Positions 11,136 to 31,594 of a stretch of DNA of 64,000 nt are shown here, piece after piece. The position numbers were made by a program, and so were the translations under genes. This stretch comes from an uncultured bacterium (GTDB taxonomy: Bacteria; Abyssobacteria; SURF-5), in NCBI GenBank assembly GCA_964607485.1, contig CAZSKP010000003.1, positions 134,622 to 198,621 of the forward strand. The letters are read 5' to 3'. Position 1 is the stretch's first letter. Each line of letters begins with the position of its first letter. A model generated the notes under the pieces. It made no database searches and was not told where the DNA came from. It saw only the letters and a list, made by a program, of their open reading frames with translations.

Positions 11136-11381
11136 GTGGCAGGCATGATAAGCATTGGATTCGGCGGCGCGGTCATGGTGGATAAGATAGTGGCCATCGT
11201 GCTGCCCGACTCGAAGCCGTCGATCCGTCTGCGCGACGCTGCAAGGGCCGAGAACAGGCTGATCGACGCCACGCAGGGGCACAAGACGCGGGCGATCATC
11301 GTCACTGCGAGCAATCACGTCATCCTCTGCGGCATCAATCCCGAAACTCTGGCGCAAAGAATAAAGGAAAGCGACGCCTGA
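11136..11381 (+). CDS. remA: DUF370 / RemA-like protein
   Basis: ISIGFG...LIDATQGHKTRAII...ETLAQR; conserved position between yicC and gmk. Confidence 0.85.
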   Translation: MAGMISIGFGGAVMVDKIVAIVLPDSKPSIRLRDAARAENRLIDATQGHKTRAIIVTASNHVILCGINPETLAQRIKESDA

Positions 11382-11385
11382 GAGA

Positions 11386-13498: not shown

Positions 13499-14947
13499 AT
13501 GAACGTCCCATCCTTCCAATCGAACTCTGGTCGGCTCGGCAGATTCGTCGCCTCAAGGGCAGGCGTGGTTGCCGCCTGTGTATTCATCATCGCACTGGAC
13601 TTCGTTCTCTTCCGCAAATCGCTGAGCCTCTATTTCATCCAGGACGATTTCTGGTACCTGTGGCTGACCAGCGACCAGAGCATCCGCGGGTTCGCAAAAC
13701 TGTTCACGACACCGACCCCCTTCTATCGTCCGATATCGAATTCCTTGTATTTCTTTTTCATGCAATTGGTCTTCGGCGTCAATCCCCTCCCCTACCATGT
13801 GGCCAACCTGCTTGCCCACGCCTTCAATTCGCTGGCCGTCGGCTACCTGGTGTATCTTCTGACCGAAAATCGGGCGCTGGCGTTCGTGTCGTCCGTCATA
13901 TTCACCTCACGGGTGGGGCACGTCATCGCTGTGTACTGGATTTGCGTGACCACCCAGAGCTGGCCTCTGATGTTCTTCCTGATTTCGTTGATATTGTACA
14001 TTCACTATCACAGAAGCGCGCGGCCCGGCTTGCTCGCCGGTTCCTATTTCTGCTTCGCCCTCTGCGCCTTCTCCAACATAAACGGCCCGACGCTCGTGTT
14101 GCTCATTACCTTGTACGACCTGCTGATGCGTGAGGGGCGCTCGCTCCTGTCCATTGCCAGGCGGGAAGCCGGTTTCTATGCGATAGTCCTGGTGTTTCTG
14201 ATTCTGCAATTCGTCATATTCAAATATCCCGAGCACGGCGAATATCACGTCAGCGCCGGGCCGGCGGCGCTGAAAGTTTTCGGTATCATAAACGTGTACG
14301 CGTTCAATCTCCTGTACCTGATAAGTTATCTCACCGACGGTCCGGCCTGGATGGTCGCGGTGAGCATCCTGGTGGGGCTTGCCGTCATCTCGTTCGCGCT
14401 GCTTGCGTTCATCAGAGCCGCGAGAAGAAAGCAGTCGTCGCAGGGACGGCTCTATCTCTTCTTCGGGTTCTGGTACATCTGGGGTTTCGCGCCCCACCTT
14501 GGCTTGACCGGGCACATATGGCCGCAGTACATCACAGTCGCGGCCGTGGGCTTGTCGTTTCTTCTCGCCAGCCTGCTGGTGAGGTTCCTGAGGCCCAAAG
14601 CCCTGGCGGCGGCGCTCTGCCTGATTCTGGCGCTCTCGTTTTTCTCCGTAAGACTGTTCGAAAAAGAGGAATACGATGCCAAGGGAATAATATACAAATC
14701 GGAGCTGGCTCGGAACATAATTTCCGACCTCCGGGAAGACCTGAAGCGCGACCCGGGCGTCGAAACGATCATCATCCTCAACGGCCAGGTCGAGCTTTGG
14801 TGGATTCTGCGTTACGGAAGGAACGCCGAGGTGTTCGTGGACAAGTTCAGGCCGATATTTTATCTCTACTCGGCCGACGGGGCGACGACGGATTCCTCCA
14901 CGCTCGTTCTGCGATACGACAACATGCATCTGTACGTAGTGCGCTGA
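13499..14947 (+). CDS. Polytopic membrane protein, GT-C glycosyltransferase-like
   Basis: DD after the first TM helix (IQDDF), YRP, PLPYHVANLLAH; about 11 hydrophobic segments. Confidence 0.65.
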   Translation: MNVPSFQSNSGRLGRFVASRAGVVAACVFIIALDFVLFRKSLSLYFIQDDFWYLWLTSDQSIRGFAKLFTTPTPFYRPISNSLYFFFMQLVFGVNPLPYHVANLLAHAFNSLAVGYLVYLLTENRALAFVSSVIFTSRVGHVIAVYWICVTTQSWPLMFFLISLILYIHYHRSARPGLLAGSYFCFALCAFSNINGPTLVLLITLYDLLMREGRSLLSIARREAGFYAIVLVFLILQFVIFKYPEHGEYHVSAGPAALKVFGIINVYAFNLLYLISYLTDGPAWMVAVSILVGLAVISFALLAFIRAARRKQSSQGRLYLFFGFWYIWGFAPHLGLTGHIWPQYITVAAVGLSFLLASLLVRFLRPKALAAALCLILALSFFSVRLFEKEEYDAKGIIYKSELARNIISDLREDLKRDPGVETIIILNGQVELWWILRYGRNAEVFVDKFRPIFYLYSADGATTDSSTLVLRYDNMHLYVVR

Positions 14948-14972: not shown

Positions 14973-16103
14973 ATGATGGAACTGACGAGGAGGGGCTTCA
15001 TCGGCAGAGCCGCCATAGCGGCGGCATGTGCCGCAAGCTGCGGATGTGCGCTGACCGCGTGCGGGGGAATGAAACGCGCCGAAGTCGGCCCCGGCGGACC
15101 CGAATTCGAGACAATCCCGAGCGTGCCCGACGAACTTGTCGAAGTCCTCTATTACGCCTCGCTCGCGCCAAGCGGACATAACGCACAGCCGTGGTACGTG
15201 AAGGTAGTGGATGAGAATACATGGATCATCGGCTCGGATCCCCTGCGAAGGCTGCCGGCCGTGGATCCGAACAATCGAGAAGCCCTGCTGTCCATCGGCA
15301 CATTTGTCGAGAATCTCTCGCTCGCAGCCGGAGCCAAAGGGTATGAGACAAACATGGAAGTGTTGGCCGCCAGCCCGTCCGACGAAGAGGTGCTCAGAGT
15401 CTCATTACAAAAGGCAAATCCAACCGGATATCCGCTGAATCGGCTTCTGACCAGAAGGACGACGAGGGGAGGCCATCGTGTGACCGAGCTGAGAAGCGAT
15501 GATGTCAAGTCATTGTCGGAACCTCTGGAAGGCCGCCTCTTCTATTTTCCTCGCGGCTCAGACCATTCCAATTGTATTGCCGAGGGCACGGTCGAAGCCT
15601 TCCGCGCGCAGACCTATCGCGATGAGGCACAGTCTGAGCTTGCCGAATGGATACGATTCAGCAACAGAGATGCGAGGCAGCACAGAGACGGACTGACGAC
15701 CGAAAGCATGGAAATCGGCGGCCTGGCCGGCTGGTATGTTCGAAACTTCATGGATAAGACCAACGTGATGAAAAAGAGTTTCAGGGAGCAAGGAATAAAG
15801 GGCACGGCCAAGATCGCTCATGAGGGTGGCGGATGGTTTGTAATAACCAGCAAAGGGAATAGCGTGGCCGACCTGGTCGAAACAGGGCGAGTGGTTGAGA
15901 GGATGTGGCTCACCGCCAGGGAACGCATGATTGCCATTCATCCCATGACGCAGATGCTCGAGGAAAAAGAATGGCTGGACGAAATCGCCTCGGAGCACGA
16001 CCCCGGCATGATTCCCCAGTTCATTCTTCGGGTCGGATACCTGGATTCGTATCCAGCGCCCGTCTCTCTTCGCCGCCCCGTGAGCTGGTTCCTGCGAACG
16101 TAG
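14973..16103 (+). CDS. Tat-exported Acg-type nitroreductase family protein
   Basis: TRRGF twin-arginine signal, LTAC lipobox candidate, APSGHNAQPW, LRVGY...SLRRP. Confidence 0.85.
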   Translation: MMELTRRGFIGRAAIAAACAASCGCALTACGGMKRAEVGPGGPEFETIPSVPDELVEVLYYASLAPSGHNAQPWYVKVVDENTWIIGSDPLRRLPAVDPNNREALLSIGTFVENLSLAAGAKGYETNMEVLAASPSDEEVLRVSLQKANPTGYPLNRLLTRRTTRGGHRVTELRSDDVKSLSEPLEGRLFYFPRGSDHSNCIAEGTVEAFRAQTYRDEAQSELAEWIRFSNRDARQHRDGLTTESMEIGGLAGWYVRNFMDKTNVMKKSFREQGIKGTAKIAHEGGGWFVITSKGNSVADLVETGRVVERMWLTARERMIAIHPMTQMLEEKEWLDEIASEHDPGMIPQFILRVGYLDSYPAPVSLRRPVSWFLRT

Positions 16104-17055: not shown

Positions 17056-17212
17056 CCCACACCGGCGAGGCCATCGCCCGTGTTCTCAGAATGAGAGCAC
17101 ATTCGCCGCGTCTTTCCGAGCTCGGCTTCCGTTAAGAGATAGACCCGCCCAAAAAAGGCTTGTGACGGCGGCAACGAGCCACTGGCACAAGCCGGCGTTC
17201 GTCACGATGAAT

Positions 17213-17244
17213 TGGTCGGGGCGACTGGATTTGAACCAGCGACC
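17213..17244 (-). repeat. Duplicated 3' end of tRNA-Pro (att core)
   Basis: TGGTCGGGGCGACTGGATTTGAACCAGCGACC identical to 29207-29238. Confidence 0.93.
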
Positions 17245-18211
17245 AGCAAAGCGCAAACTATTGAAAATAAAGAGGGTTCTGAGCCCCGCCTGCCGGATGC
17301 TAACGAATATGCTAAAGTCTTCGTCGAGGCTCTCGCTGAGAGGCTTGCAGAAGCATGGAACAAGCTCTCCCCGGACATTCGGGATGCGGTAATCAATCTC
17401 CTTGATAAGGTTCTTCAACAGACATAATCGAAGAGGGTCGGAGAGGGTGGGTGGTGTACATCTTGGAAAGTGCAATTTCGGTCTCGATGTTGCACACTAT
17501 CTATCCGCTATCGTTAAAGGAACCTCTCTTAGCAGGGGTGGAGTGCGAATACTAATCCCGCCAGACCCTTTCTCTGATCCATTTTTCCCAAACCTGCCCC
17601 GCGAAACCTTTCAAGAAGGATGAAATTCATAAAGGCGTCGTATGGCGTGTGCATCGATAACAGGTTTTCGGACCCTCGTCAACTAGACAAGTTCGTGATG
17701 AAAGTGTTGACTGCTACTTTGACGGAAGTAAGTGTGGTTATGGGAGGGAAGCTGCACTTATAAATAGGCGCTTACGCTAAGTGATCCTGGCTTTAGCTTG
17801 TCAAGTGTGTAGGTCTGACCCCGTTACTTCCCCGGGAGAGAGAGCCATGACCTGAATGACATTATTCCATCTCCGAATGAGACCCCATAGGTTTCGCCTG
17901 CAAAAACAGTATATCATGGGCGACACCTATCCCATTCACTCTGCACGGGGTCTTTGCATCCTTTGCGGCATGATTTCTTGAAAGAACAAATCGGCTTTTG
18001 CGTCTGCGGTCAACAATCAAAACTTTGCTTCCCGGCATTTCTCTGCGACTTGGTGTCTTTGCGCGAGGCAATCTTCTTTTTTGATTGCGGCTTCGCCACG
18101 CTGCGCATCCACGAGCGCACGATTGCCTGTTTCCAATCCGAAATATTTTTTTCTTGACAGAGACCGCCGCTCTGGTATATGAGTATATGCGCGTAAAGGA
18201 GGGGATACGCT

Positions 18212-18826
18212 TTGTCGGATCAGACTGCCGCAACAATCGGAAAGAGGCTTATGCACGCCCGCGAGTCGATGCGGCTCACACTCCAGCAACTCTCCCGCCT
18301 ATCTGGTGTCGCCCCGAGCACCATTCAGAAAATTGAAGCGGGCACCATGATGCCGTCCGTCGCAGTCATGATGAAGATCGCGCGCGGGCTCCACAAGAAG
18401 ATAGGCTTTTTCCTTGACGAGGACGAATCGAGCGTCGAGGTTGCAGTGGTCCGCAAGCGCGACCGCACACGGGCGAGCATGCAGGAGAGCGGCTATTCGG
18501 TGCAAAGCCTTTCGGCGGAACTTCTCGATGCGGAGATAAACGGTTTTATCCTTGTTGTGCCGCCAGGCGGAAACAGCGGTGAGGAACCGCTCCACCATCG
18601 CGGCGACGAATTGGTGTATTGCGTACGCGGCAGAGTGACATTCACTGTGGGCGGTAAGGATTATGCAGTCGGCGCCGGGGACAGCTTGCATTTCAAGTCG
18701 GAACTCCCTCACTCGTGGAAGAATTCCGGCCGCTCGAATGCGGAGCTGGTCATTGTCTGTTCGCTGCCTGCGCTCGCAGAGAAATCGGTCTTTCGGCAAG
18801 GCGCAAGCTTGAGCCGAAGGAGGTGA
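18212..18826 (+). CDS. XRE-family HTH + cupin transcriptional regulator
   Basis: IGKRL..ARES..LTLQQLSRLSGVAPSTIQKIE; H.GDE...GDSLHFKSELPHSWKN; TTG start with GGAGG RBS. Confidence 0.9.
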   Translation: MSDQTAATIGKRLMHARESMRLTLQQLSRLSGVAPSTIQKIEAGTMMPSVAVMMKIARGLHKKIGFFLDEDESSVEVAVVRKRDRTRASMQESGYSVQSLSAELLDAEINGFILVVPPGGNSGEEPLHHRGDELVYCVRGRVTFTVGGKDYAVGAGDSLHFKSELPHSWKNSGRSNAELVIVCSLPALAEKSVFRQGASLSRRR

Positions 18827-18830
18827 CTGA

Positions 18831-20930
18831 ATGCCGTACTACGTCGGGACCGACATCGGCGGCACCTTCACGGATTGTGTGGTTCTTGATGAGACCGGAA
18901 ACATCGTCATAAGCAAGTCTCCGTCCACTCCTCCCGATTTCGCCCAGGGTCTCATGAATTCGCTTCTCGACGCGGCCGCCCAACTTGACCTGTCGGTTTC
19001 CGCTCTTCTCTCGCGGACGAAGCTCTTTTCCCACGGCTGCACCGTTGCCACAAATACGCTGATCAACCAATCCGGCGCAAAGGTGGGGGTCATAACGACA
19101 AGAGGCTTTGAAGAAACGCTTTATATCATGCGCGGTTCGGCCTATTGTCAGGGCCTCCTGGTCAGTGACTGGTATCACAAGCCACAGAATGAGCGGCCTT
19201 TCGAGATTGTTCCACTGTCGCGCATTGTTGGGATTACGGAACGCGTGGATAAAGCTGGTGATGTAATCGTGGCCATGAATGAGGACGAAGTCAGGAGGAC
19301 TGCCGAGTTTCTCATCAATGCGTGCGGCTGTGAAGCTATTGCGATTGCCTTTTTGTGGTCTTTTGTGAATCCGGCTCATGAGAGCCGGGCCAAAAATATA
19401 ATCGAGCGGGAGTTTCCCAACGTCTGTGTAAACACCAGCGCCGAGGTGGTAGCGCTGATAGGAGAATATGAGCGGTTCAGCACGGCGGTACTGAATTGCT
19501 ATCTGCGTCCTGAGGTCGATACATACGTTCACGACCTGAAAGCCCGCCTCTCCGAGAGAGAACTGGCGGCGTCATTTCTTATCATGCAGGCGCATGGCGG
19601 TTTGGCGCCGTGGGAATCGGCGGCCGGGCGCGCGGTGGCTATGCTGCAGTCGGGACCGACGGGCGGGGTCATAGCGGGTAAAGCTATCGGCTCGCTCATC
19701 AGGAAAGAGAACATTATCACCGCCGACATGGGCGGCACCTCATTCGACATCAGCCTGATTGCAGAAAGCAAACTTCGCTACACGACCAAATCTTATCATT
19801 CGCGACACGTGGTGGCGGCGCCGATGGTGGATATCGAATCCATAGGCGCGGGCGGCGGCAGCATCGCCTATGTTGATCGGAACGTCTGCAAGGTAGGCCC
19901 GCAGAGTGCAGGCGCCGATCCCGGCCCGGTTTGCTACTCGAGGGGCGGAAGCAGGCCCACTGTCACAGACGCGAACCTGGTCCTGGGTTATCTGAACCCG
20001 GAATTCTTCCTTGGCGGTAAAATGAAACTTGACACCGAGGCCGCCCGTAATGCGATCAAACGCGACGTCGCCGATCCGCTCGGCCTGACTGTGACTGAGG
20101 CCGCCTACGGCATTCATCGAATCGTCAATGCGCACATGTCCGATGCCGTCCGTTTCCATGTGCTTCACCGAGGGTATGACCCGCGCGATTTTCACCTGCT
20201 CCTGTTCGGCGGCGCCACACCGGTTCATGCCGCGGACATTGGCGAAGACCTCGAAGTCAGGTCCATCATTATTCCACTTGCAGGAATAGCGACTGTTCTT
20301 TCGGCATTCGGCATTGTCAATACGGATGTAGTGCGTACATACTCCGCCTCTCTGTCACTCCCGCTCGAACCGGATAGCATGGAAAGACTTGAGGAGCAAT
20401 ATCGGCTGCTCGAGGAACAGGGGCTTGCGGAGCTTGAGGCGGACGGATTCGAGAGGCCGAACATCGTGCTCGAACGAAGAGCAAACATCCGTTATCACCT
20501 CCAGCTTACCGAGGTCGACATTGAGCTTTCGCGAGACCCGCTTGGTGGAGATGCAGCGATAGATATCACTGAACGGTTTGACAAGCGCTACGCCGACCTG
20601 TATGGCGAAAACGCCGGATTCAAGGAGGCAGGACGCGATATCATCAGCCAGTTTGTCCGCGCCATGGCGAAAACGCCGAAAGTGAAACTCAAGAAGGCGG
20701 AGCAAAATCATTCCGGCCTTGAGTCGGCACGAAAAGGCACTCGAAACGTCTGCTTTGACGGAACGAACTTCGTGGCTGCGGATACATACGATGGTGATCT
20801 TCTGCCCGCTTACGGACAGGTATCCGGCCCAGCCGTCCTGGAAATGGCCGGAACTACCGTGCTGATTCCACCCACCTACAGAGCCGAAATGGATGCGTAT
20901 CGCAACATCTTCTTGAGGAAGAGAGGCTGA
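18831..20930 (+). CDS. Hydantoinase/oxoprolinase A (ATP-binding subunit; acetone carboxylase beta-like)
   Basis: GTDIGGTFTD, SGPTGG, DMGGTSFD, IGAGGGS, GPQSAGADPGP, TVTDAN. Confidence 0.93.
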   Translation: MPYYVGTDIGGTFTDCVVLDETGNIVISKSPSTPPDFAQGLMNSLLDAAAQLDLSVSALLSRTKLFSHGCTVATNTLINQSGAKVGVITTRGFEETLYIMRGSAYCQGLLVSDWYHKPQNERPFEIVPLSRIVGITERVDKAGDVIVAMNEDEVRRTAEFLINACGCEAIAIAFLWSFVNPAHESRAKNIIEREFPNVCVNTSAEVVALIGEYERFSTAVLNCYLRPEVDTYVHDLKARLSERELAASFLIMQAHGGLAPWESAAGRAVAMLQSGPTGGVIAGKAIGSLIRKENIITADMGGTSFDISLIAESKLRYTTKSYHSRHVVAAPMVDIESIGAGGGSIAYVDRNVCKVGPQSAGADPGPVCYSRGGSRPTVTDANLVLGYLNPEFFLGGKMKLDTEAARNAIKRDVADPLGLTVTEAAYGIHRIVNAHMSDAVRFHVLHRGYDPRDFHLLLFGGATPVHAADIGEDLEVRSIIIPLAGIATVLSAFGIVNTDVVRTYSASLSLPLEPDSMERLEEQYRLLEEQGLAELEADGFERPNIVLERRANIRYHLQLTEVDIELSRDPLGGDAAIDITERFDKRYADLYGENAGFKEAGRDIISQFVRAMAKTPKVKLKKAEQNHSGLESARKGTRNVCFDGTNFVAADTYDGDLLPAYGQVSGPAVLEMAGTTVLIPPTYRAEMDAYRNIFLRKRG

Positions 20931-20931
20931 G

Positions 20932-23289
20932 ATGGCGCCAAAACTCAAGGAATTTGGGCGGCCCCATCCGAATCTGCCGAAGCCGCATGCGCTGCGGGCG
21001 CCGTTCACAGTGCCTGAACCGCCGGTCGAGGTGGACCCGATCACCTACGAAATCATAAAGCACCGCATCTGGTATGCCGGCCTTTCGCTCGGTGAAACGC
21101 TCAAGAAAGTATCGGGCACCATTGTCACGGCGGAGGCCAATGACATGAGTTCCTACATAACCTTGGAGGACGGCGCACCGGTCTTCATCGGGCCTTACGT
21201 CATCTTTCATTCGGGCAATTCCGACCTCATCATTTCGAATGTCATAAGGCTCAATAAGGAAGACCCCGGGATATATGACGGCGACATGTTTTTTGTGAAC
21301 GACCCCTGGCTCGGACCGGCGCATCAGCCGGATTGCGCGATCGTTGCACCAATATTCCTTGACGACAAGCTTTTCTGCTGGACCGGCCTCACGGTACACC
21401 AACTCGATCTTGGCGGCGTCGATCCCGGCGGCCTGTGCCCGAATGCTCGCAATGTCTATGCCGAGCCGACGCTGTTCCCGGCCGTCAAGATCGTCGAGCG
21501 CGGGAAATTTCGAACCGATTTCGACCGCCTGCTCCGAAGGAACTCGCGAATGCCCGGCATCGTGGCCCTGGATATCAGGTCGATGATTGCCGGCAACAAC
21601 GCCTGCCGACGGGATATCCTGAAGCTGGTTGCCCAATACGGCAAGGAAGCAGTCAAATCGGTAATGATCATGATGATCAGGAAGACCTCGGAAAAATTTA
21701 AAGAACGGCTGCGGGAGTTGCCTCGCGGGACGTTTCGATGCCGCGACTGGAACGAGATTGGTGGAGCCGCCCCCGAACTGCAGGACGAGGTCTACCAGAT
21801 GGAGTGCACGCTCACGAACACGGGCGAAAAATTGATATTCGACTTCTCCGGAACCTCTGTCCAGTGCACCGGCTTCGCCAATTGCGGAGTGGGCGGCATG
21901 CGGAGCGGCGTCATATCCGGGTTCGCGGAGCCGGTGGCTTTTGATATCCCTTGGAATGCGGGAATCCTGGAGAACGTGGAAATCATTTCACAGGAAGGCA
22001 CCATCAACAATCCCAAATATCCCGCTGCGCTCTCCGACGGGATAACTGAAGGCGCTATCGTGACGGCGGCCGCTTCGGCCGGCGCTGTTATGAGGATGGT
22101 GCTCGGCCACCGGGAACTTCGCGACAAGACGCTCATCAACAGCGGCGCGGCTTTCCTTGGCAACACGCTTGGAGGCATGAACGAGAAGGGAGAGTTCTGG
22201 GGCACCTTGCTAATGGATGTCATCGGAATGTGTTCCATGCCGACGGGTGTTCGCGACGGTAGGGACATCACGGGCTCGGGCGGGATACCGTACACACAGT
22301 TTTCCAATGTCGAAACGAATGAATTGCATTATCCGATGCTCTACTTGTACCGAAGGCTTGGAAAAGACGCCTGGGGCCATGGATACCACCGCGGCGGGCG
22401 CTCGATCGAGCTTGCGTTCAAGCCGCACAAGACGGGAGCAATATACATGCTCCTGTGGAACCACGGCGCTGAATTCTCAAACAGCGTGGGTCTCTCCGGC
22501 GGCCTGGGAGCCAGCGCTGTCCGGTTCAAGGTGGCCCGGAATACCGACATCGAAGAAAGATTCCTGGCAGGCTCCCTGCCTGTGAGCATCGATGAATTTC
22601 CAACGCAGGCGCTAAAGGCCAAAAGTGAAAACCTGCTCGGTTGCGATGACTTGATCTATTTCGGAGTGCCCGGTGGAGGCGGATACGGCGACCCGTTGAA
22701 GCGCGAACCCGAACGAGTCCTCGCCAATATCAAGGAAGGGATACTCACCGCTCAGGATGCACTCAAGTTTTATGGGGTTGTCGTCAAAGGGGAAGAGCCG
22801 GAAGTCGATCTTGAGGCCACCCAGGCGGAGCGGGCGCGAATACGGAAGGCGCGACTTGCTTACGGCCGATATCTCGATGAATGGGATGAGTTGACGCCTC
22901 GGGAGAACGCATCGCCGGTTTCCCCGAGACCTGTGCGCCAGAAATGCACGCCGGCAGATCCCGTTCGAGATTTGATTGCAGTGGGAATGGGATTAAAAAT
23001 CGTTCGCGACGGCGCAAGCAGGCACTGGTGGGCGTGCTCCGATTGCGGGCACGTGTACTGTGCGGCCGAGGACAATCCGAAGCATGCGGCGCTCATGCAG
23101 GTAGGATATCTTTCCCAGATTTCTCACCCGACCGCAGAGATGGCCAGGCGCGACCCCCCGCGCTTCTTTCTCCGACAATTCTATTGCCCTGTTTGCGCTC
23201 TTACGTTTGCAAACGAGATGGCGCGCGCGGACGACCCGGTACTCGATGATATTGATTACGACCCTGCCTGGCTGGCGGCACAAGAATGA
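20932..23289 (+). CDS. Hydantoinase B/oxoprolinase subunit with C-terminal acetone-carboxylase-gamma-like Zn domain
   Basis: VDPITYEII, NDPWLGPAHQPD, HQLDLGG, GGGGYGDP; C-terminal CSDCGH...RQFYCPVC. Confidence 0.9.
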   Translation: MAPKLKEFGRPHPNLPKPHALRAPFTVPEPPVEVDPITYEIIKHRIWYAGLSLGETLKKVSGTIVTAEANDMSSYITLEDGAPVFIGPYVIFHSGNSDLIISNVIRLNKEDPGIYDGDMFFVNDPWLGPAHQPDCAIVAPIFLDDKLFCWTGLTVHQLDLGGVDPGGLCPNARNVYAEPTLFPAVKIVERGKFRTDFDRLLRRNSRMPGIVALDIRSMIAGNNACRRDILKLVAQYGKEAVKSVMIMMIRKTSEKFKERLRELPRGTFRCRDWNEIGGAAPELQDEVYQMECTLTNTGEKLIFDFSGTSVQCTGFANCGVGGMRSGVISGFAEPVAFDIPWNAGILENVEIISQEGTINNPKYPAALSDGITEGAIVTAAASAGAVMRMVLGHRELRDKTLINSGAAFLGNTLGGMNEKGEFWGTLLMDVIGMCSMPTGVRDGRDITGSGGIPYTQFSNVETNELHYPMLYLYRRLGKDAWGHGYHRGGRSIELAFKPHKTGAIYMLLWNHGAEFSNSVGLSGGLGASAVRFKVARNTDIEERFLAGSLPVSIDEFPTQALKAKSENLLGCDDLIYFGVPGGGGYGDPLKREPERVLANIKEGILTAQDALKFYGVVVKGEEPEVDLEATQAERARIRKARLAYGRYLDEWDELTPRENASPVSPRPVRQKCTPADPVRDLIAVGMGLKIVRDGASRHWWACSDCGHVYCAAEDNPKHAALMQVGYLSQISHPTAEMARRDPPRFFLRQFYCPVCALTFANEMARADDPVLDDIDYDPAWLAAQE

Positions 23290-23311
23290 CTATCGAAGGG
23301 AGGGGCGAGCC

Positions 23312-24820
23312 ATGAATCTCATGAGGGATTTCGCGAACTGGGTCGAGCGCAGACCGGAGGCGCCCGCGCTCATCCATGAAGACAGGGTCTATTCCTACGG
23401 CGAACTCATGCAGCTTATCGACAAATGTGGGCTGGCCATGAAGAAGTTGGGAGTGGGACCCGGCGAACGGGTGGCGCTCATGATGAACAATCGGCCCGAA
23501 TTCGTAGTGGCCTATCAGGCGACGGTAAAGATTGGGGCAATTATCGTTCCGATCAACACATTTCTCAAGGAGGCTGAACTGCTGCATCAGGTGAATGATG
23601 TCGGCGCCAGAGTCTTTATCGGAAACGATTGGGCCGCCGCGCCAGTGAGCGGCATCAAAGACAAACTCGAAACCGTCGAACAAATCATCCTCACCGGAGT
23701 TGAAGGGTACGCGGATTTTCAGGATTTCATCGGGTCTGAGCGAGGCGTACTTGAGATGTACGATGCACATGATGACGACGTGGCCGTGATCAAATATACC
23801 GCCGGCACCACCGGCAGACCAAAGGGCGTGATGCAGACGCACGGCAGTATCTATCGCTTCATGCGCGACACCATGAACATTCGCTCCATCGAGTCTGAGC
23901 ATTGTATTCTCCTGTTCGTTCCGATGTTTCATGGGTTTGGGGACCATTGCTGCATGAATCCGGTCCTCATGTGCGGCGCCAGCTTTGTGATCATGGACCC
24001 TTTTCATCCGGATGAGATTTTTCAGGCGATTCAAGGTTACAAATGTAGATATTTCGGCTGCACCCCTTCGATGTTGTATGGCCTCATGCATTCCGCCGAT
24101 GCCGAGAAATATGACCTCTCCAGTCTTGATCAGGTTTTGACGGGAGGCGGACCGGTAACGCGTGATATCGCCGAGGGCTTCGAGCGGAAGTTCGGCATAA
24201 AAGTACTGCAGGGCTATGGCCTCTCCGAAGGGACGGCGGGGTACACCTATACCAGGCTGGACATGCCGTTCAAAGAAGGTTCATGCGGAATTCCACTGCC
24301 CGGCGTTGAATTGAAGATTGTGGACGAGCAGGGCGCTGAAGTTCCCGTTGGCCAACCCGGCGAGGTCGTGGCAAGAAGCAGCTACAACATGAAAGGATAC
24401 TGGAATAATCCGGGAGAGACCGAAAAGACGATCAGGAACGAGTGGCTGCACACCGGCGACGTCGGCCGCCTGGATGAAGAAGGCTACCTGTATGTGATGG
24501 ATCGCAAGAAAGACATGATCATCATGAGCGGCGAGAATATCTATCCGGTCGAGATCGAGGAGATCCTTCTGCAACATCCCGCCGTGGCTCAAGCCGCCGT
24601 AATCGGTGCGCCGGAACCCAGGCGAGGCGAAGTTCCATGCGCGGTCGTGGTGCTCCATCCGGGCGCAAGCCTGACGGAACATGAACTGATCGAGTTCTGC
24701 AAGCCGAAGATGGCCTCTTTCAAGGTTCCGCGCATGGTCAAGTTCCGAGACAGCATGCCTTTGAGCGCGCAGTTCAAGGTCCTAAAGAGAGAGCTTCGAA
24801 GCGAGTACTTCGGCTCTTGA
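23312..24820 (+). CDS. AMP-forming acyl-CoA ligase
   Basis: YTAGTTGRPKG, QGYGLSE, TGD, DRKKDMII.SGENIYP.EIE. Confidence 0.93.
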   Translation: MNLMRDFANWVERRPEAPALIHEDRVYSYGELMQLIDKCGLAMKKLGVGPGERVALMMNNRPEFVVAYQATVKIGAIIVPINTFLKEAELLHQVNDVGARVFIGNDWAAAPVSGIKDKLETVEQIILTGVEGYADFQDFIGSERGVLEMYDAHDDDVAVIKYTAGTTGRPKGVMQTHGSIYRFMRDTMNIRSIESEHCILLFVPMFHGFGDHCCMNPVLMCGASFVIMDPFHPDEIFQAIQGYKCRYFGCTPSMLYGLMHSADAEKYDLSSLDQVLTGGGPVTRDIAEGFERKFGIKVLQGYGLSEGTAGYTYTRLDMPFKEGSCGIPLPGVELKIVDEQGAEVPVGQPGEVVARSSYNMKGYWNNPGETEKTIRNEWLHTGDVGRLDEEGYLYVMDRKKDMIIMSGENIYPVEIEEILLQHPAVAQAAVIGAPEPRRGEVPCAVVVLHPGASLTEHELIEFCKPKMASFKVPRMVKFRDSMPLSAQFKVLKRELRSEYFGS

Positions 24821-24835
24821 GGAGGTGGATTCACG

Positions 24836-26494
24836 ATGGAACAGAATGAACGAAGAATCGCCGAGGAAAAAGAGAGATGGGAGCGCGAGCAGAAAATACA
24901 TGATATTCCGCCGTTGAATACCGACACAATGGGGTACGAACATAAGGTGGTTTACACTCCCGCCGATGTCGATCCTTCTTCCTATCTCGGACAGGTGGGT
25001 TTCCCGGGCGAATTTCCGTACACTCGCGGCGTGTATCCCGCCATGTACCGAAAGGCACTCATGCGATTTCCCCAGTACTCGGGATTCGGCACGCCGGAGG
25101 ATACGAACAACCGCTGGAAATACCTCATCAGTCACGGGCAGATGACGGTGAACCTTGCTTTTGATCTTCCGACTCACATCGGTCACGATTCGGACGATCC
25201 GGAGATCGAGGACGAAGTGGGCAGGGTCGGCGTAGCTATCGATTCGCTGCGCGATTTCGAGGTGCTTTTTGATGGAATCCCGCTCGTGCCCGCCTTTTTC
25301 AATACGATGGGGCCGGCATCGATCCTGCTGGCTATGTACATCGCGATGGGAGAGAAGAAGGATATTCCTCCTTCCAGTGTAATGGGCGCTTTCACCAACG
25401 ACCCGATTGCCGTATGCGCATGCAGGGGAAACTGGGTCTTTCCGATCAAACCCAGCCTGCGGCTCGTCACCGACATGATCGAGTATTGCTGCAAGAACAT
25501 GCCCCGTTTTTATCCCATGAACATCCAGGGCGTCTTTTATCGTGCTGTTGGAGGTTCGATCCCGCAGGAGGTCGGTTACACCTATGCGGCGGCGCTCACG
25601 TATATTAACAGCGCATTGGAAAGAGGACTCAGCATAGACGACTTCGCTCCACGTCTGAGTTTTTTCATTTCGTGCGGGCCGGAGTTTTTGGCCGAATGCG
25701 CCAAATTCAGGGCTGCGCGCCGCCTATGGGCAAGACTGATGCGGGACCGATATGATGCAAAAGACAAGAACTCGCTCCGCGCCCGCATGACCAGCGCGAC
25801 CGGCGGTTCCTATTTTCAGGCAATAGAGCCGCTGAACAACCTGATGCGCGGCGCGTATGCGATATTGGGAGCGGCGCTCGGCGGCGCGCAGGCATTGTTC
25901 ATTGCCGGATATGACGAGGCCTATGCGATTCCCACAGAGGAGACGGCGCGTCTCGGCCTGCGAACGACCCAAATATTGGCGGAAGAAACCGATGTCTGCC
26001 GCACGGTAGACCCGCTTGCAGGCTCCTACTATATCGAGGACCTCACTAACTTCATCGAAAAGGAAGCCGAGCGGTATCTCAAGGATATCGAAGAACATGG
26101 CGGCGCAGCGGAGGCAGTCGATTCGGGTTACATGCGTCGCGAGCTCGACCGTGTTTTCAAGACGCAGCACGAGAAACGTCTTTGCGGAGAAATACCTATA
26201 GTGGGCGTCACCAAACATAAACACGAAGGCGAGCAGGAAAAGGAAATCGAAATTCATCAGCCCAGCCCCGAGGCTCTGCGCCTGCAAATTGAACGGCTCA
26301 AACAGGTGAAGGCTGAGCGCGACGCCGCCGAGGTGAAAAGACGGCTTCAGCGCGTGAGAACGGCCGCGAAAGGCGAGGAAAATCTGATCCCGATTTTCAT
26401 TGACGCGGTCAAGGCGTATTGCACGCTGGGCGAAATCATGGGAGTGCTCAAGGAAGAATTCGGGGAATTCAAAGAGCCGAGATACAGCGCCTGA
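24836..26494 (+). CDS. B12-dependent acyl-CoA mutase, substrate-binding large subunit (divergent)
   Basis: [46 protein letters not shown]. Confidence 0.92.
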   Translation: MEQNERRIAEEKERWEREQKIHDIPPLNTDTMGYEHKVVYTPADVDPSSYLGQVGFPGEFPYTRGVYPAMYRKALMRFPQYSGFGTPEDTNNRWKYLISHGQMTVNLAFDLPTHIGHDSDDPEIEDEVGRVGVAIDSLRDFEVLFDGIPLVPAFFNTMGPASILLAMYIAMGEKKDIPPSSVMGAFTNDPIAVCACRGNWVFPIKPSLRLVTDMIEYCCKNMPRFYPMNIQGVFYRAVGGSIPQEVGYTYAAALTYINSALERGLSIDDFAPRLSFFISCGPEFLAECAKFRAARRLWARLMRDRYDAKDKNSLRARMTSATGGSYFQAIEPLNNLMRGAYAILGAALGGAQALFIAGYDEAYAIPTEETARLGLRTTQILAEETDVCRTVDPLAGSYYIEDLTNFIEKEAERYLKDIEEHGGAAEAVDSGYMRRELDRVFKTQHEKRLCGEIPIVGVTKHKHEGEQEKEIEIHQPSPEALRLQIERLKQVKAERDAAEVKRRLQRVRTAAKGEENLIPIFIDAVKAYCTLGEIMGVLKEEFGEFKEPRYSA

Positions 26495-26520
26495 ATCGGA
26501 AGCGAGTATGGAGGTCTGAG

Positions 26521-26919
26521 ATGGAAAGGAAATTGAGAGTTCTGGTAGCCAAGCCTGGCCTGGACGGGCACGACATGGGCGCCAGACTCATATGCCAGAT
26601 TCTGCGGGACGCAGGTGTCGAGGTGATATACACCGGCCTCAGACAAAGCGTCGACGCTATTGTCACTTCGGCGATACAGGAGGATGTGGACGTCGTTGGC
26701 CTGAGCATCCTTTCGGGAGCGCACCTGGGGCTGACTCGCAAAATCATCAGTGGACTCAATGCCGCCAAGGCCGGAGACAAGGCTGTTATCGTTGGAGGGC
26801 TCATTCTCAAGGGAGACGAGGCCAAACTCAAAGAGATGGGCGTCAAAGCGGTATTTCCCTCGGCGACGCCGTATGACGAAATCAGGAAATATTTTCAAAA
26901 CTACAGGACATCAGATTAA
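26521..26919 (+). CDS. Cobalamin-binding small subunit of acyl-CoA mutase
   Basis: AKPGLDGHDMG (DxHxxG), GLSILSGAH, GG. Confidence 0.93.
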   Translation: MERKLRVLVAKPGLDGHDMGARLICQILRDAGVEVIYTGLRQSVDAIVTSAIQEDVDVVGLSILSGAHLGLTRKIISGLNAAKAGDKAVIVGGLILKGDEAKLKEMGVKAVFPSATPYDEIRKYFQNYRTSD

Positions 26920-26974
26920 GGACCATTCGGCTGAACGACATAAACAAACCGGGAGACGCCGAAAGGAGAGGGCC

Positions 26975-28126
26975 ATGAACTTTGAAATACCCGAAGAGAC
27001 GAGACAATTGCGGGACGCGTTGCGGCGATTTATCGAAAAGGAAATCAGGCCGCTCGACGAGCAAGTCAGAGAGCAAGATGACATACCTCTCGACCTTATT
27101 ACCGAGGCCAGACGGCGAGGCGTCGCTGCAGGTTTCTACGGCATGTTCATGCCGGAGGAGGTCGGCGGCGGCGGGCTCTCGATCCTTCCGACGACGCTTG
27201 TTTTCGAAGACATTGCCATGCAGGGCTCGCGAATGGCTCGTTTTGCGCTCGGGGCGCATGGTGGCCCCACACCGATCCTGCTAGCGTGCAACGAAGAGCA
27301 GCGCGAGCGTTTCCTCATGCCGGTGATGCGGGGCGAGAAGACCAACTGCTTTGCTTTGACCGAGCCGGGCGCCGGTTCCGACGCCGCGGCCATTCAGACC
27401 ACCGCCGTGAAAGACGGCGACAAGTACGTGATCAATGGAGTCAAGCACTTCATTACCAACGGCCCGTATGCAGACTTTGCGATGGTGTACGCGATCACGG
27501 ATAAAGAACTCGGCGCGCGCGGAGGAGTGACATGTTTTCTCGTTGAAAAAGGGACGCCCGGTTTTTCCGTTGCGCGCGTTCAAGAGACGATGGCAGGCGA
27601 CAACCTGCAGGCCGAACTCGCGTTTGAGGATTGTGTGGTTCCCGAAAAGAATATCCTGGGTGAACCTGGACAGGGATTCCTGCTGGCAATGCGGTGGATC
27701 GGACATGGGCGGCTTCTTATCGGCGCCATGTGTGTCGGAGTGTCGGAACTGCTGCTCAGAATGTCAACCGATTATGCAAAGCAGCGCGAGCAGTTCGGAA
27801 AGCCGATCTCGAGCAAACAGGCGATACAGTGGATGCTCTCGGATTCGGCAACTGAAATATATGCGGGCCGGATGATGCTGTACAATGCGGCGTGGAAAGC
27901 CGATCAGGGCGAGAACATCATCAAGGAAACCTCAATGGTCAAGCTGTATGCGACCGAGATGGTAAATCGGATAGCCGATCGCGCGCTCCAGATTCACGGC
28001 GGCATGGGCTACATGCGCGAGTTTCCCATTGAGCGCATCTTCCGAGAGGTGCGCGTGCTCCGTATCGTCGAGGGCACTTCCGAAATCCAGCGGTTCATCA
28101 TTTCGAGGTTCCTGCTGAACGGATGA
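26975..28126 (+). CDS. Acyl-CoA dehydrogenase
   Basis: FALTEPGAGSD, NGVKHFITN, REQFGKPI, QIHGGMGY, RIVEGTSE. Confidence 0.94.
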   Translation: MNFEIPEETRQLRDALRRFIEKEIRPLDEQVREQDDIPLDLITEARRRGVAAGFYGMFMPEEVGGGGLSILPTTLVFEDIAMQGSRMARFALGAHGGPTPILLACNEEQRERFLMPVMRGEKTNCFALTEPGAGSDAAAIQTTAVKDGDKYVINGVKHFITNGPYADFAMVYAITDKELGARGGVTCFLVEKGTPGFSVARVQETMAGDNLQAELAFEDCVVPEKNILGEPGQGFLLAMRWIGHGRLLIGAMCVGVSELLLRMSTDYAKQREQFGKPISSKQAIQWMLSDSATEIYAGRMMLYNAAWKADQGENIIKETSMVKLYATEMVNRIADRALQIHGGMGYMREFPIERIFREVRVLRIVEGTSEIQRFIISRFLLNG

Positions 28127-28220
28127 TTTGAGCGGCCGTCAGGGAAAGCAGGGAACGCGTCGCCGCCGCGGGAGGGCACAACGTGCTCATGTGACCGTCT
28201 CCGGTAACTGGAGACCTTTG

Positions 28221-28376
28221 ATGCGCAGTTCTATCAGAAGAAAAAAACTGTTGGCATTGATCGCGGTCGTTATCATAATATCAATGCTCTTGCTGTTTCT
28301 GGCTGGATATATCTTAGGACCTGATAGAATATGGTATCCTGCCCCCAGGTTCCAAACTTCTAATCCAGAAAAATAG
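28221..28376 (+). CDS. Possible small single-TM protein
   Basis: MRSSIRRKKLLALIAVVIIISMLLLFLAGYILG; GGAG upstream; AT-richer than flanks. Confidence 0.35.
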   Translation: MRSSIRRKKLLALIAVVIIISMLLLFLAGYILGPDRIWYPAPRFQTSNPEK

Positions 28377-28401
28377 AGCAAGAATGGAGGGTTAAACCCT
28401 A

Positions 28402-28500
28402 TATAACATTCTCTTGATAGTCCCGCCCGGCTCGGGCAAGACGATGCTGACTAAACGTCTTGCGACCACCCTTCCCGACATGAACTCCAACAACACCTGA
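28402..28500 (+). pseudogene. comM: comM/yifB (Mg-chelatase-like ATPase) Walker A fragment
   Basis: Translates YNILLIVPPGSGKTMLTKRLATTLPDM, matching the ComM pattern HN.L..GPPGSGKTMLA.RL..ILP. Confidence 0.7.
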
Positions 28501-28547
28501 AAGATTTTCTGGACCACCTGAAGGACCGTGGAGTCGGTTCAAGGTAC

Positions 28548-29162
28548 TTGCTGGCGTGTTCCAGCAAGCTGACCCTCGCCTTCGAACACATGGGAGCTGT
28601 GTGTTTGGCAGACCTGTCAAGCGACAGGGCAGAAAAATTCCTGCTCTGGCTCGTTGAGAAGAAGAAGGCCTGGCGGGTGCTTCAGGGCAAGAGATTGGGA
28701 AGAGAGGTAAGCCTTGCAGAGCCGGTGTTCAACATGTCCCGGCATATACTCGAGCACTTCCGGAGGGACTGCCTCGCAGCAAGCATCCCGCTCAAAGACG
28801 ATTCGGGACGCATTGTGGACTTCCATTGCCTGCGTCACACCACCGCCAGCCTTCTGAGCAGAGCAAAGGTTGCGCCGCGAGCCGCGCAGGCGCGTCTGCG
28901 CCATTCCGACATCAGGCAGACCATGAAGACGTACACCCACCCGGAACTAGTCGACAGGACAGCGGCAGCGGAGACCTTTCCTGTTTTCACTATGGATAGA
29001 GAAGTTGAGAATGACGAAGTGAAACTTTCGCTAACATGTTTACTAACATATATGCTAAAGAAATCTGGCTCTGCGGGGCCGGAAAAGGCGGAGCCTGACA
29101 GAGAGAGACAGGCAAGGCCCTTTAGAAGAAGACCCGCAAATCCCTACAAAAAAGGCTTGTGA
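28548..29162 (+). pseudogene. Truncated tyrosine recombinase/integrase (C-terminal catalytic part)
   Basis: GRIVDFHCLRHT...AQARLRHSDIRQTMKTYTH (HxxR, H, Y); N-terminal domains and the first catalytic Arg region not recognisable. Confidence 0.85.
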
Positions 29163-29206
29163 CAGCGGCAACAAGCCACTTGCACAAGCCGGCATTCCTC
29201 ATATGT

Positions 29207-29282
29207 TGGTCGGGGCGACTGGATTTGAACCAGCGACCTCACGGTCCCGAACCGTGCGCGCTACCCCCTGCGCTACGCCCCG
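29207..29282 (-). tRNA. tRNA-Pro (anticodon CGG)
   Basis: CGGGGCG...CACGG-TTCGGGA-CCGTG...GCTGGTTCAAATCCAGT-CGCCCCG-ACCA cloverleaf, 76 nt, encoded CCA. Confidence 0.96.
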
Positions 29283-30362: not shown

Positions 30363-31418
30363 CTAAAGCTCTTCCTTGTACTTCCTGTAGAGGCCGCGGA
30401 ACTGATGATATGTGAGCCCAAGAACGCGCGCGGCTTTCTTCTGGTTGAACTTGGCGTCTTTGAGGGCTGTCCGCAAAAAATCCAGTTCCAGTTCGTGAAC
30501 GACATCGGCCAATGGTTTGTCGATTCGCTTCCTTGGTGATGAACCGCCTTCGGACACCGTCGCTTTCTTCTCTCCTGCTCCTTCGGGGACAGTCTTTTCC
30601 CTGTACGGCGAGCGGAAAGGATCGAAGTCAATATCGGTGACCAGCGGCGAATCGGAACGATAGACGGCGCGCTCGACGACGTTTTTCAGTTCGCGTACAT
30701 TCCCCGGCCAGGAGTAGCCTTCGAGCGCATCCATGGCCTCGTCGCTGAATTCGGGAACCTCCTCGCGTCCCATCTCATATGACATCCGGGCCGCGAAATG
30801 GTTCGCGAGCAGCATGATGTCCTCCCTGCGCTCTCGCAACGGCGGCAGAAAGAGCACCTCGAATGATAGCCGGTCAAGCAGGTCGCGCTTGAATTTGCCC
30901 TCGGCCATCAGGGTCGGCAGGTCCGCGTTCGTGGCCCCGATAATCCGCACGTCCACTCGTATCGGCTGCGAGCTGCCCACCTGCTCAAAGGTTCCGTATT
31001 CCACCACGCGCAGTATCTTTTCCTGCACCTCTATCGGGATGATTCCAATTTCATCGAGAAACAAGGTGCCGCCGTCGGCGGTCTCGAATCTGCCTTTCCG
31101 ACGTCTCGTTGCGCCGGTGAATGCCCCCTCCTCATGACCGAACAATTCAGACTCGATGAGCGTCGGCGCGAGCGCCGCGCAGTTAAGCGCAACCAGCGGC
31201 CCCTGCCACCGGCCGGAGAGGTAGTGCAGCTTTGAAACGGCCAGTTCCTTGCCCGTTCCCCGCTCCCCTATGAGAAGCACGGGTCGGTCAACCTGGGCAA
31301 CGCGGGACAGGCGCTCCTTAAATTCGAGGAATATCTCCGACCGCCCCAGTGCCTCTCCCACAGGCACATGCTGACCCGGAGCGGGCTTCTCTTCACCAGT
31401 TTTCCTTGCGCCATTCAT
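30363..31418 (-). CDS. pspF: Phage shock protein operon activator (sigma54 EBP)
   Basis: GERGTGKE, GAFTGA, LFLDE, WPGNVREL, C-terminal HTH YHQFRGL; no N-terminal sensor; divergent from pspA. Confidence 0.93.
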   Translation of the reverse strand: MNGARKTGEEKPAPGQHVPVGEALGRSEIFLEFKERLSRVAQVDRPVLLIGERGTGKELAVSKLHYLSGRWQGPLVALNCAALAPTLIESELFGHEEGAFTGATRRRKGRFETADGGTLFLDEIGIIPIEVQEKILRVVEYGTFEQVGSSQPIRVDVRIIGATNADLPTLMAEGKFKRDLLDRLSFEVLFLPPLRERREDIMLLANHFAARMSYEMGREEVPEFSDEAMDALEGYSWPGNVRELKNVVERAVYRSDSPLVTDIDFDPFRSPYREKTVPEGAGEKKATVSEGGSSPRKRIDKPLADVVHELELDFLRTALKDAKFNQKKAARVLGLTYHQFRGLYRKYKEEL

Positions 31419-31473
31419 GGTATTATTTCCTAAATAATAGTCTATTCTACTACTATTTGCTAAATTATACCAT
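31419..31473. promoter_or_regulatory. Candidate PspF upstream activator sites
   Basis: AT-rich imperfect inverted pair TGGTATTATTTCCTAA / TTGCTAAATTATACCA, 70-120 bp upstream of the -24/-12 site. Confidence 0.5.
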
Positions 31474-31538
31474 AATGATTTTTCTTTGTCAAGTCCATAA
31501 GCTATTTAAGAAAAAGAGCTTACATATCCCCGCCGATT

Positions 31539-31555
31539 TTGGCATGCCTTGTGCT
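31539..31555 (+). promoter_or_regulatory. sigma54 promoter of pspA
   Basis: TTGGCATGCCTTGTGCT, GG-N10-GC. Confidence 0.8.
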
Positions 31556-31594
31556 TAATAGCCCGCCAAGGATGAACGAAACGGAGGAGACATC

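Follow-up and report, generated by a model that had tools for sequence, protein, structure and literature searches.

We analyzed a stretch of 64,000 nt (hereafter the window; positions 134,622–198,621 of contig CAZSKP010000003.1, assembly GCA_964607485.1) from an uncultured Abyssobacteria bacterium of the SURF-5 lineage, in which seven genes of a putative catabolic operon lie on an island integrated at a tRNA gene. Coordinates are relative to the window; where handles are needed, G000 denotes the host genome, with its contigs C2, C6, C12 and C57, other G numbers denote genomes and L numbers loci. According to open reading frame (ORF) calls, Pfam and NCBIfam, seven intact ORFs, all on the + strand, fill positions 18212–28126 (lengths in amino acids, aa):

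18212..18826, + strand: regulator with an XRE-type helix-turn-helix (HTH) and a cupin domain, 204 aa (HTH_3 44.6 bits, Cupin_2 65 bits)
18831..20930, + strand: HydA, ATP-binding subunit, 699 aa, related to hydantoinase A and acetone carboxylase beta (Hydant_A_N, Hydantoinase_A and Hydant_A_C, all full length)
20932..23289, + strand: HydB-gamma, catalytic subunit related to hydantoinase B and carboxylases, with a fused acetone-carboxylase gamma (Cys4) domain, 785 aa (Hydantoinase_B 324 bits, Acetone_carb_G 38.6 bits)
23312..24820, + strand: acyl-CoA ligase, 502 aa, full length (AMP-binding 311 bits, AMP-binding_C 78 bits)
24836..26494, + strand: B12 mutase large subunit, 552 aa (MM_CoA_mutase 541 bits)
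26521..26919, + strand: B12 mutase small subunit, 132 aa (B12-binding 79 bits; TIGR00640 123 bits, cut-off 57)
26975..28126, + strand: acyl-CoA dehydrogenase (ACAD), 383 aa (three ACAD domains; motif IVEGT)

Three of these starts were corrected using the reading frame, the ribosome-binding site and the length of orthologues. The ligase start was moved to the ATG at 23312, which is preceded by a GAAGGGAGGGG ribosome-binding site, that of the small mutase subunit to the ATG at 26521 and that of the ACAD to the ATG at 26975. With these starts the intergenic gaps are 4, 1, 22, 15, 26 and 55 nt, reproducing the seven closely spaced, co-directional genes with gaps of 1–55 bp of an original prediction made from the sequence; the hydantoinase B–gamma fusion described there was recovered as well, with Pfam finding both domains in the one 785-aa protein. 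The spacing suggests that the seven genes are co-transcribed, and scans of the operon for promoters and terminators gave no signal above shuffled sequence. The arrangement is more than a chance one, since unrelated genomes and metagenome contigs show the same gene order. None of the seven proteins exceeded any NCBIfam equivalog cut-off, the nearest models (score/cut-off) being CapA (578/1000 bits), ApcD (185/1500), methylmalonyl-CoA mutase (MCM; 436/876) and AcrC (344/640), in keeping with the earlier view of the module as a candidate for an undescribed system. The regulator reached 70 bits with the PuuR model (cut-off 211); a paralogue of 64% identity is encoded on contig C57 of the host, and regulators of the same type, 36–39% identical, stand upstream of HydA in L002 and L018.

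The following features delimit the island around the operon (a strand is given where one applies):

17150..17244: left copy of the direct repeat (repeat search and pairwise alignment)
17245..18211: island interior upstream of the regulator, with no gene assigned (Pfam, Rfam, tblastx, blastn)
28455..29162, + strand: remnant of a tyrosine recombinase (integrase), a partial Phage_integrase match of 29.7 bits
29147..29238: right repeat copy, which extends into the 3' part of the tRNA (repeat search and pairwise alignment)
29207..29282, − strand: tRNA-Pro (CGG), the integration target (ARAGORN; Rfam tRNA, 65.4 bits)

The island thus measures about 12.0 kb and comprises the seven genes, about 1 kb of left-end DNA with no assigned gene and the integrase remnant. 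It is flanked by a direct repeat of about 95 nt that includes the 3' end of tRNA-Pro: the last 33 nt of the tRNA (29206–29238) are duplicated exactly at 17212–17244, and the 55 nt downstream of the tRNA (29147–29201) are 91% identical to 17150–17204. In the pairwise alignment the homology breaks off abruptly at 17244/29238, inside the tRNA, and a repeat that ends so sharply within a tRNA is the pattern expected of site-specific integration. The integrase remnant adjoins the tRNA and covers only profile positions 127–168 of 172; its frame is without a start codon ahead of 28548 and has stops upstream. The marks of a tRNA-associated island, namely a tRNA at the border, a repeat of its 3' end and an adjacent integrase, are all found, the last as a remnant only, and they bear out the earlier description of the module as island-borne. 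Because the integrase has decayed, the island should now be fixed. We assign a probability of roughly 55% to the full reading, in which this island of about 12 kb, integrated at the 3' end of tRNA-Pro and now fixed, carries one regulated catabolic operon with the reactions proposed below.

Four DNA sequencing runs from one sediment-metagenome study were available. In one run, which covers the full stretch and from which the assembly may derive, the island unitig (17216–27629) has a read depth of 9.95 and the flanks have depths of 9.2–11.7; since the depth of the island equals that of the flanks, the island is no minority variant in that run. An empty-site joint (17245 to 29215), found on one contig each in X1 and X2, was not used: its shorter side has only 22 letters, and because the junction lies in a conserved tRNA it may represent the tRNA-Pro of another organism. 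The interval 17245–18211, to which no gene was assigned, gave no Rfam match and no similarity to related loci in tblastx or blastn, an ORF of 124 aa at 17862–18236 (− strand) had no Pfam match, and Rfam revealed no riboswitch or other RNA besides the tRNA between 16000 and 30000. Between the ACAD gene and the integrase remnant, a short ORF with a hydrophobic stretch and no family match was noted at 28221–28376. On the left flank, the gene at 14973–16103 has a match, and a partial one, in only one of nine genomes of the same family.

The first two enzymes belong to a group that includes both carboxylases and lactam-opening hydrolases. In HydA the ATP motifs DIGGTFTD, DMGGT and GADPGP are all intact; besides its match to CapA, it scored 399 bits with ApcC (cut-off 1500), and the PDB search returned 7hk5 and 6yra at 395 bits, 5l9w_B at 375 and 5m45_B at 340. 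HydB-gamma carries Hydantoinase_B at residues 35–588 and Acetone_carb_G (PF08882, cut-off 21 bits) at 682–777, the latter with a CSDC...CPVC motif whose cysteines C702, C705, C752 and C755 are invariant in five orthologues. Its best PDB matches are ApcD (5l9w_A, 158.5 bits), N-methylhydantoinase (7hk5, 157.3), CapB (125) and AcxA (122); the B subunit can be aligned to ApcD as far as residue 655, and the gamma part matches AcxC (5svb_C) at 26 bits. All the parts of a ketone carboxylase are therefore found, an HydA-like ATPase, an extended HydB and a Cys4 gamma, the last as a fused domain. None of the Apc equivalog cut-offs was reached (ApcA 245/1250, ApcB 20/250, ApcC 399/1500, ApcD 185/1500 bits), nor does the pair look like a typical lactamase or hydantoinase, given the gamma domain and scores of 578 bits for CapA and 166 for CapB against cut-offs of 1000 each. 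Section 2.5 of PMC13677872 (2026) terms gamma homologues specific to Apc and Acx, and Table 1 of PMC8453981 gives lengths of 581 aa for CapB and 564 aa for IaaE, with CapB, IaaE and HyuB lacking a gamma module there. HydA and HydB-gamma thus appear to stand between lactamases and carboxylases by score and to be carboxylase-like by architecture.

Plasmid pCP105 of Rhodococcus opacus carries a distant fused homologue in the order short-chain dehydrogenase/reductase (SDR)–HydA–HydB–SDR–acyl-CoA ligase. This order would fit a sequence from alcohol to ketone, keto-acid and CoA ester, and we take it to resemble the ped/apc/bal genes of ethylbenzene degradation. The plasmid search gave no close relative (HydB-gamma at most 35% and mutase at most 46% identical), and distant HydB homologues of 31–36% identity, annotated in eight loci, have unrelated contexts with neither ligase nor mutase and give no hint of the substrate. 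The host also encodes a paralogous pair of HydB (29%) and HydA (38%) at C2:75434–79309, which is kept in 9/9 genomes of the family.

The ligase is closest in structure to feruloyl- and fatty-acyl-CoA synthetases (8wev/8weu, 277 bits in the PDB search), and the two mutase subunits have the catalytic domain and the DxHxxG domain of a B12 acyl-CoA mutase, the latter as DGHDMG in the small subunit. The best PDB match of the large subunit is 2-hydroxyisobutyryl-CoA mutase (HCM; 4r3u, 419 bits), followed by human MCM (361 bits); the canonical MCM equivalog was not reached (436 bits, cut-off 876). Residue numbering was checked against the spacing of the residues when aligned with human MCM. Across MCM and its isobutyryl-CoA (ICM), ECM and HCM relatives, a Tyr and an Arg count as MCM-type markers for a substrate carboxylate, and His244 is regarded as the general acid of MCM. 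In the isobutyryl-, pivalyl- and 2-hydroxyisobutyryl-CoA mutases, position 89 is Phe or Ile and position 207 is Gln, with Asp117 in HCM. The island mutase keeps Tyr81 (QYSGF) and Arg197 (CRGNW), equivalent to MCM Tyr89 and Arg207, and has Ala at the position of HCM Asp117, so that the signature of the isobutyryl/pivalyl/hydroxyisobutyryl type is absent. T187, V233 and F234 replace MCM Gln197, Tyr243 and His244, and the canonical MCM residue set is likewise incomplete. Among the 120 best mutase matches, P0001–P0039, a few fragments included, share a motif of the type QGV[FY]x in place of the canonical GYH; P0040–P0075 mostly carry a second non-canonical motif, NIRGIIMREAG, and the canonical G-Y-H is confined to matches from P0078 onward, with no more than 48% identity. 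We therefore place the island mutase, as judged from these residues, in an uncharacterized clade with a distinct active-site signature, and the earlier description of it as a novel B12 mutase holds insofar as its active-site residues differ from those of characterized mutases.

The sister clade marked by NIRGIIMREAG is also uncharacterized; it is 47–49% identical and was sampled in L107, L108 and L109 (G537, G696 and G730). In 3/3 of these genomes a CoA-transferase of the acetyl-CoA hydrolase family lies immediately upstream of the large-subunit gene (mutL), and the loci all contain ligases and genes of TRAP carboxylate transporters. The order in L107 is CoA-transferase–mutL–mutS–ACAD, and in L108 and L109 an ACAD lies 1.7–4 kb downstream; the ACADs of these loci carry GEG. 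Ecm and Mcd form a mutase/ACAD pair acting on substituted succinyl-CoA, and by analogy the sister-clade arrangement would fit such a pair. The host genome encodes five large-subunit paralogues of acyl-CoA mutases and one fragment. Within the window, a second large subunit at 41034–42683 (− strand; 759 bits with Pfam) carries Phe (RQFAGL) and Gln (AQKSW) and should therefore be of the isobutyryl/hydroxyisobutyryl-CoA type rather than an MCM; its nearest named relatives, at 84–86%, are from metagenome-assembled genomes (MAGs) of Candidatus Abyssobacteria.

We compared the seven proteins with 18 loci by tblastn, supplemented by Pfam and further tblastn searches. HydB-gamma was found at four loci of at least 60% identity in three MAGs, plus one at 31%, in a scan of one genome per species, and at 48 loci in metagenomes, 12 of them at 51–87% identity and 36 at no more than 41%. 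The orthologue clade has a sharp edge: in a set of 5.8 billion clustered proteins, the best 44 representatives, counting the one from the window, have identities of at least 46% and the next one of at most 37%. All orthologues come from metagenomes or MAGs, with names never going beyond an automatic 'N-methylhydantoinase B', and literature searches returned no description of this gene combination. The ligase gene follows HydB-gamma in 14/14 related loci that reach far enough (L003, L018 and L026 end too early and were left out), and a mutase of the same clade, 54–85% identical, follows the ligase in 6/11 loci extending past it, in three host lineages. Elsewhere the mutase position is occupied differently. 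L022 and L023, which are near-identical, have a different, fused mutase of 35% identity with Ser at the Arg position, and L019, L021 and L024 have a FadH/OYE-like flavoenzyme. Additional genes recur as well: an Amidohydro_2 enzyme in eight related loci, an orthologous enoyl-CoA hydratase in five (adjoining the small mutase subunit in L002, L016 and L027), a thiolase with a DUF35 partner in L016, L019 and L024, and in L002 a thiolase alone together with an F420-dependent LLM oxidoreductase. A 556-aa ORF upstream of HydA in L019 was dropped from the comparison as probably an antisense frame of an ADP-forming CoA-ligase-like gene. The six-enzyme synteny anticipated in the original prediction does recur elsewhere with HydA–HydB-gamma–ligase as its constant part; the set of six is not conserved as a unit, and the enoyl-CoA hydratase, Amidohydro_2 and thiolase genes of related loci make a 'stand-alone' pathway doubtful.

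The distribution of this core does not follow that of its hosts. HydB-gamma of G043, G041 and G042 is 82%, 69% and 60% identical to that of the island, and their mutases are 85%, 74% and 65% identical, respectively; the housekeeping protein CoaBC of these three genomes is only 48–64% identical to that of the host. The reverse is seen in G001, from the same family, with 78% for CoaBC and just 57% for HydB-gamma. Because the similarity is discordant with housekeeping genes, the core must have moved between phyla. An orthologue is present in 1/9 genomes of the same family, the other eight holding only paralogues of 27–30%, and in 1/301 sampled genomes of the class of G041, namely G041 itself, where a 12-gene version has a resolvase and an integrase to one side of it and a DDE transposase to the other. 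On the strength of the discordant identities, the patchy distribution and the mobile elements around the G041 version, we regard the HydA–HydB-gamma–ligase core as a horizontally spread, mobile cassette, as the original prediction had it.

The last gene of the operon has a different history. The best PDB matches of the island ACAD are MCAD/Bcd-like (1ukw, 4l1f, 5ol2; 286–302 bits); it is 86% identical to G000:C12:100700–101842, 84% to the G009 and G001 copies and 49–60% to copies in 9/9 genomes of the family. These relationships mark it as a paralogue from the host lineage rather than an ancestral part of the module, and the island as a mosaic. The ACAD motif is VEG in the window and L004, TEG in L002, L016 and L027, where a hydratase gene precedes the ACAD, FEG in L024 and YEG in L025; the IaaF-like GGG occurs in ACADs of L019 (3485–4672, − strand) and L021 (about 10700–11800), loci in which an OYE-like reductase replaces the mutase. 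Because type and motif vary between loci, the ACAD is best described as a recurrent neighbour and not as one orthologous gene. The Discussion of PMC8360864 lists VEG for benzylsuccinyl-CoA and long-chain dehydrogenases and GEG for methylsuccinyl-CoA dehydrogenases, and names GGG in place of YEG as the mark of the decarboxylating benzylmalonyl-CoA dehydrogenase IaaF. Around the C12 copy (99300–104050; L087 7297–12049) the order is PduO-type cobalamin adenosyltransferase–SDR–ACAD–FadH/OYE-like reductase, possibly another B12-linked acyl-CoA route.

This mosaic raises the question whether the seven genes form one pathway at all, or whether only HydA, HydB-gamma and the ligase are functional together, as a ketone carboxylase with a keto-acid ligase, with the mutase and the ACAD recruited separately. 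The host-lineage origin of the ACAD would suit such an assembly, as would the three loci with no mutase in the covered region and a host with five mutase large-subunit paralogues and 19 matches to the crotonase-family model. A mutase of the same clade nevertheless accompanies the core in 6/11 loci, with an identity of 54–85% that tracks that of HydB-gamma, and the genes of the island are only 15–55 nt apart in this region, with no terminator signal above chance. We consider separate recruitment quite unlikely.

The host also contains a decayed relative of the module on C57 (L085 5560–12449), in which HydA and HydB are missing. It retains a regulator (64%), an intact small mutase subunit (67%) and only residues 35–108 of a large subunit, interrupted by a stop, and also holds an enoyl-CoA hydratase, an NMO-like gene and two ligases. 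An orthologue of the Amidohydro_2 enzyme, 69% identical to that of L002, lies on C6 of the host genome and not in the island. With one clearly broken cluster in the genome, a decayed integrase on the island and no hydratase, Amidohydro_2 or thiolase such as the fuller G041 version has, the island copy could itself be a decaying, incomplete remnant that no longer supports the pathway. This would, however, leave seven full-length ORFs with intact motifs, an Amidohydro_2 orthologue retained elsewhere in the genome and an island depth equal to that of the flanks in the run that holds it fully, and it appears very unlikely.

If the operon is instead one regulated catabolic unit, the enzyme families suggest the following reactions, each of which, like their order, we infer from sequence. 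First, HydA and HydB-gamma would form a two-polypeptide ATP-dependent enzyme whose most likely activity is to phosphorylate a carbonyl compound and carboxylate it, yielding a carboxylic acid. Within this reading carboxylation has about even odds, being favoured because the architecture is carboxylase-like, and ATP-dependent opening of a cyclic amide is the somewhat less probable variant. Second, the ligase would turn the pathway acid into its CoA thioester. Third, the B12 mutase would shift the CoA-carbonyl between adjacent carbons of an acyl-CoA with a free carboxylate, interconverting a 2-substituted succinyl-CoA and a substituted malonyl-CoA whose substituent is larger than in methylmalonyl-CoA. 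Fourth, the ACAD, with its catalytic Glu intact, would introduce an alpha,beta double bond, after which beta-oxidation enzymes of the host would complete the breakdown. That the ring hydrolase BamA scored above its cut-off in none of five carrier genomes points to a substrate that is not aromatic. Quinolinones, coumarins, gamma-lactones or levulinate, and maleimides were also weighed as substrates and set aside.

Several observations weigh against this scheme or the island behind it. The simple carboxylation of a ketone gives a beta-keto monoacid, which after CoA ligation has no free carboxylate and so is no obvious feed for a mutase with the conserved Arg; by analogy, a carboxymethyl-substituted lactam, such as that of the iaa pathway of indole-3-acetate degradation, would be a direct source of substrate for it. 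Carboxylase and hydrolase are not told apart by score: the lactamase model CapA ranks first for HydA, and for HydB the PDB matches to ApcD and N-methylhydantoinase are nearly tied (158.5 and 157.3 bits). Enoyl-CoA hydratase and Amidohydro_2 genes, present in 5–8 related loci, are missing from the island, its ACAD is only 40–41% identical to those of L016, L002 and L027, the loci with the closest cores, and its base composition is not deviant (GC 0.554–0.570 inside, 0.544–0.584 beside it). As for the missing carboxylate, a keto-acid as the substrate, action of the ligase first, or ring opening as in iaa may supply it.

It follows from the families assigned that the module is built of known parts; as a catabolic cassette, it appears to have no characterized counterpart. 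We tentatively propose, at somewhat less than even odds, that it combines two such activities, a fused-gamma ketone carboxylase or other ATP-dependent activator and a mutase lacking His244 and Tyr243 for a bulky carboxylated acyl-CoA, into a new anaerobic route for non-aromatic carbonyl or cyclic compounds that is mobile across several phyla of uncultured sediment bacteria. Should the chemistry be as suggested, the first enzyme would add a substrate class to ATP-dependent carbonyl activation, and the second a specificity class to the few B12 acyl-CoA mutases, which are sought in biotechnology for carbon-skeleton rearrangements. How a mutase clade works without the presumed general-acid His is a direct question of mechanism. 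With five core genes in about 8 kb, all intact in the island, the cassette is compact, and its mobility across phyla suggests that the substrate is patchy yet widespread in anoxic sediments.

Beyond the island, the window contains a PspF-type sigma-54 activator and a divergent PspA (phage-shock protein) just past the tRNA (30363–32272), two ORFs (642 and 649 aa) following an ABC ATPase (37147–41021) and an ORF of 482 aa (13499–14947), the last three ORFs with no Pfam match at E ≤ 0.001.

Among the closest known systems, the iaa cluster of Aromatoleum aromaticum has the same four families, with IaaCE as the hydantoinase-like pair, IaaB as the CoA ligase, IaaGH as the two-subunit B12 mutase and IaaF as the ACAD (PMC8360864, Introduction and Fig. 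1 legend). The module was compared with the Iaa proteins by published lengths, motifs and gene content. The island might encode a shortened iaa-like lactam pathway, in which a carboxymethyl lactam such as 2-oxindole-3-acetate or an aliphatic analogue is hydrolysed to a substituted succinate, activated by the ligase and converted by the mutase to a substituted malonyl-CoA, followed by decarboxylation and dehydrogenation. Such a route would use the families described for iaa in PMC8360864. It would supply the free carboxylate implied by the conserved Arg of the mutase, the caprolactamase model scores best for HydA, and ACADs with the GGG motif occur in the related loci L019 and L021. In L002, L016 and L027, the hydratase beside the small mutase subunit may be an alkylmalonyl-CoA decarboxylase of the crotonase type, presumably similar to E. 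coli ScpB.

The differences lead us to regard an iaa-like route as unlikely. The gamma domain and long B subunit (785 aa) are carboxylase features, which the 564-aa IaaE and the lactamases lack as tabulated in PMC8453981 and discussed in section 2.5 of PMC13677872. The island ACAD has VEG with its catalytic Glu, in contrast to the GGG given for IaaF in PMC8360864, and no candidate decarboxylase lies in the island. The Mo-hydroxylase, the IaaL CoA-transferase and the binding protein of iaa are missing; Pfam detected neither Mo-hydroxylase nor CoA-transferase in the seven genes, the integrase remnant or four further ORFs in or beside the island, an absence that the prediction had reported. The ring hydrolase BamA/Oah, the marker of the benzoyl-CoA pathway fed by iaa, exceeded its cut-off (TIGR03200, 464 bits) in 0/5 carrier genomes, which are 95–97.5% complete where known; the best score was 126 bits, arguing against an aromatic product funnelled to benzoyl-CoA. 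The iaa analogy of the prediction thus stands for the enzyme families and is otherwise weak, and the module, as far as such comparison allows, is not an iaa cluster.

The remaining systems each share part of the proposed carbonyl-activating pathway. With CapAB, 5-oxoprolinase and N-methylhydantoinase it has in common the HydA and HydB core, about as similar as to the carboxylases; their B subunits are shorter and carry no gamma, and the caprolactamase models scored 578 and 166 bits, well below 1000. MCM and Ecm have the same MM_CoA_mutase fold, DxHxxG B12 domain and equivalents of Tyr89 and Arg207, whereas the island mutase is split in two subunits, has Thr, Val and Phe for Gln197, Tyr243 and His244, finds its best structural match in HCM and reaches 436 of the 876 bits of the MCM equivalog. 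Ecm is paired with Mcd. In this pair, too, the mutase is thus joined by an ACAD altered at the Tyr of YEG, following the motif classes in the Discussion of PMC8360864. AcxABC and ApcABCDE–Bal of Xanthobacter and Aromatoleum contain the same HydA-like ATP-binding subunit, extended HydB-like subunit and Cys4 gamma; the gamma of the island enzyme is fused to B, giving two polypeptides in place of three to five, there is no epsilon or alpha' subunit, and the scores fall far under the Apc equivalog cut-offs. The bal ligase gene follows the apc genes, much as the ligase gene lies directly downstream of HydB-gamma. In the island, however, the enzyme would be followed by a B12 mutase and an ACAD instead of leading straight to thiolysis.

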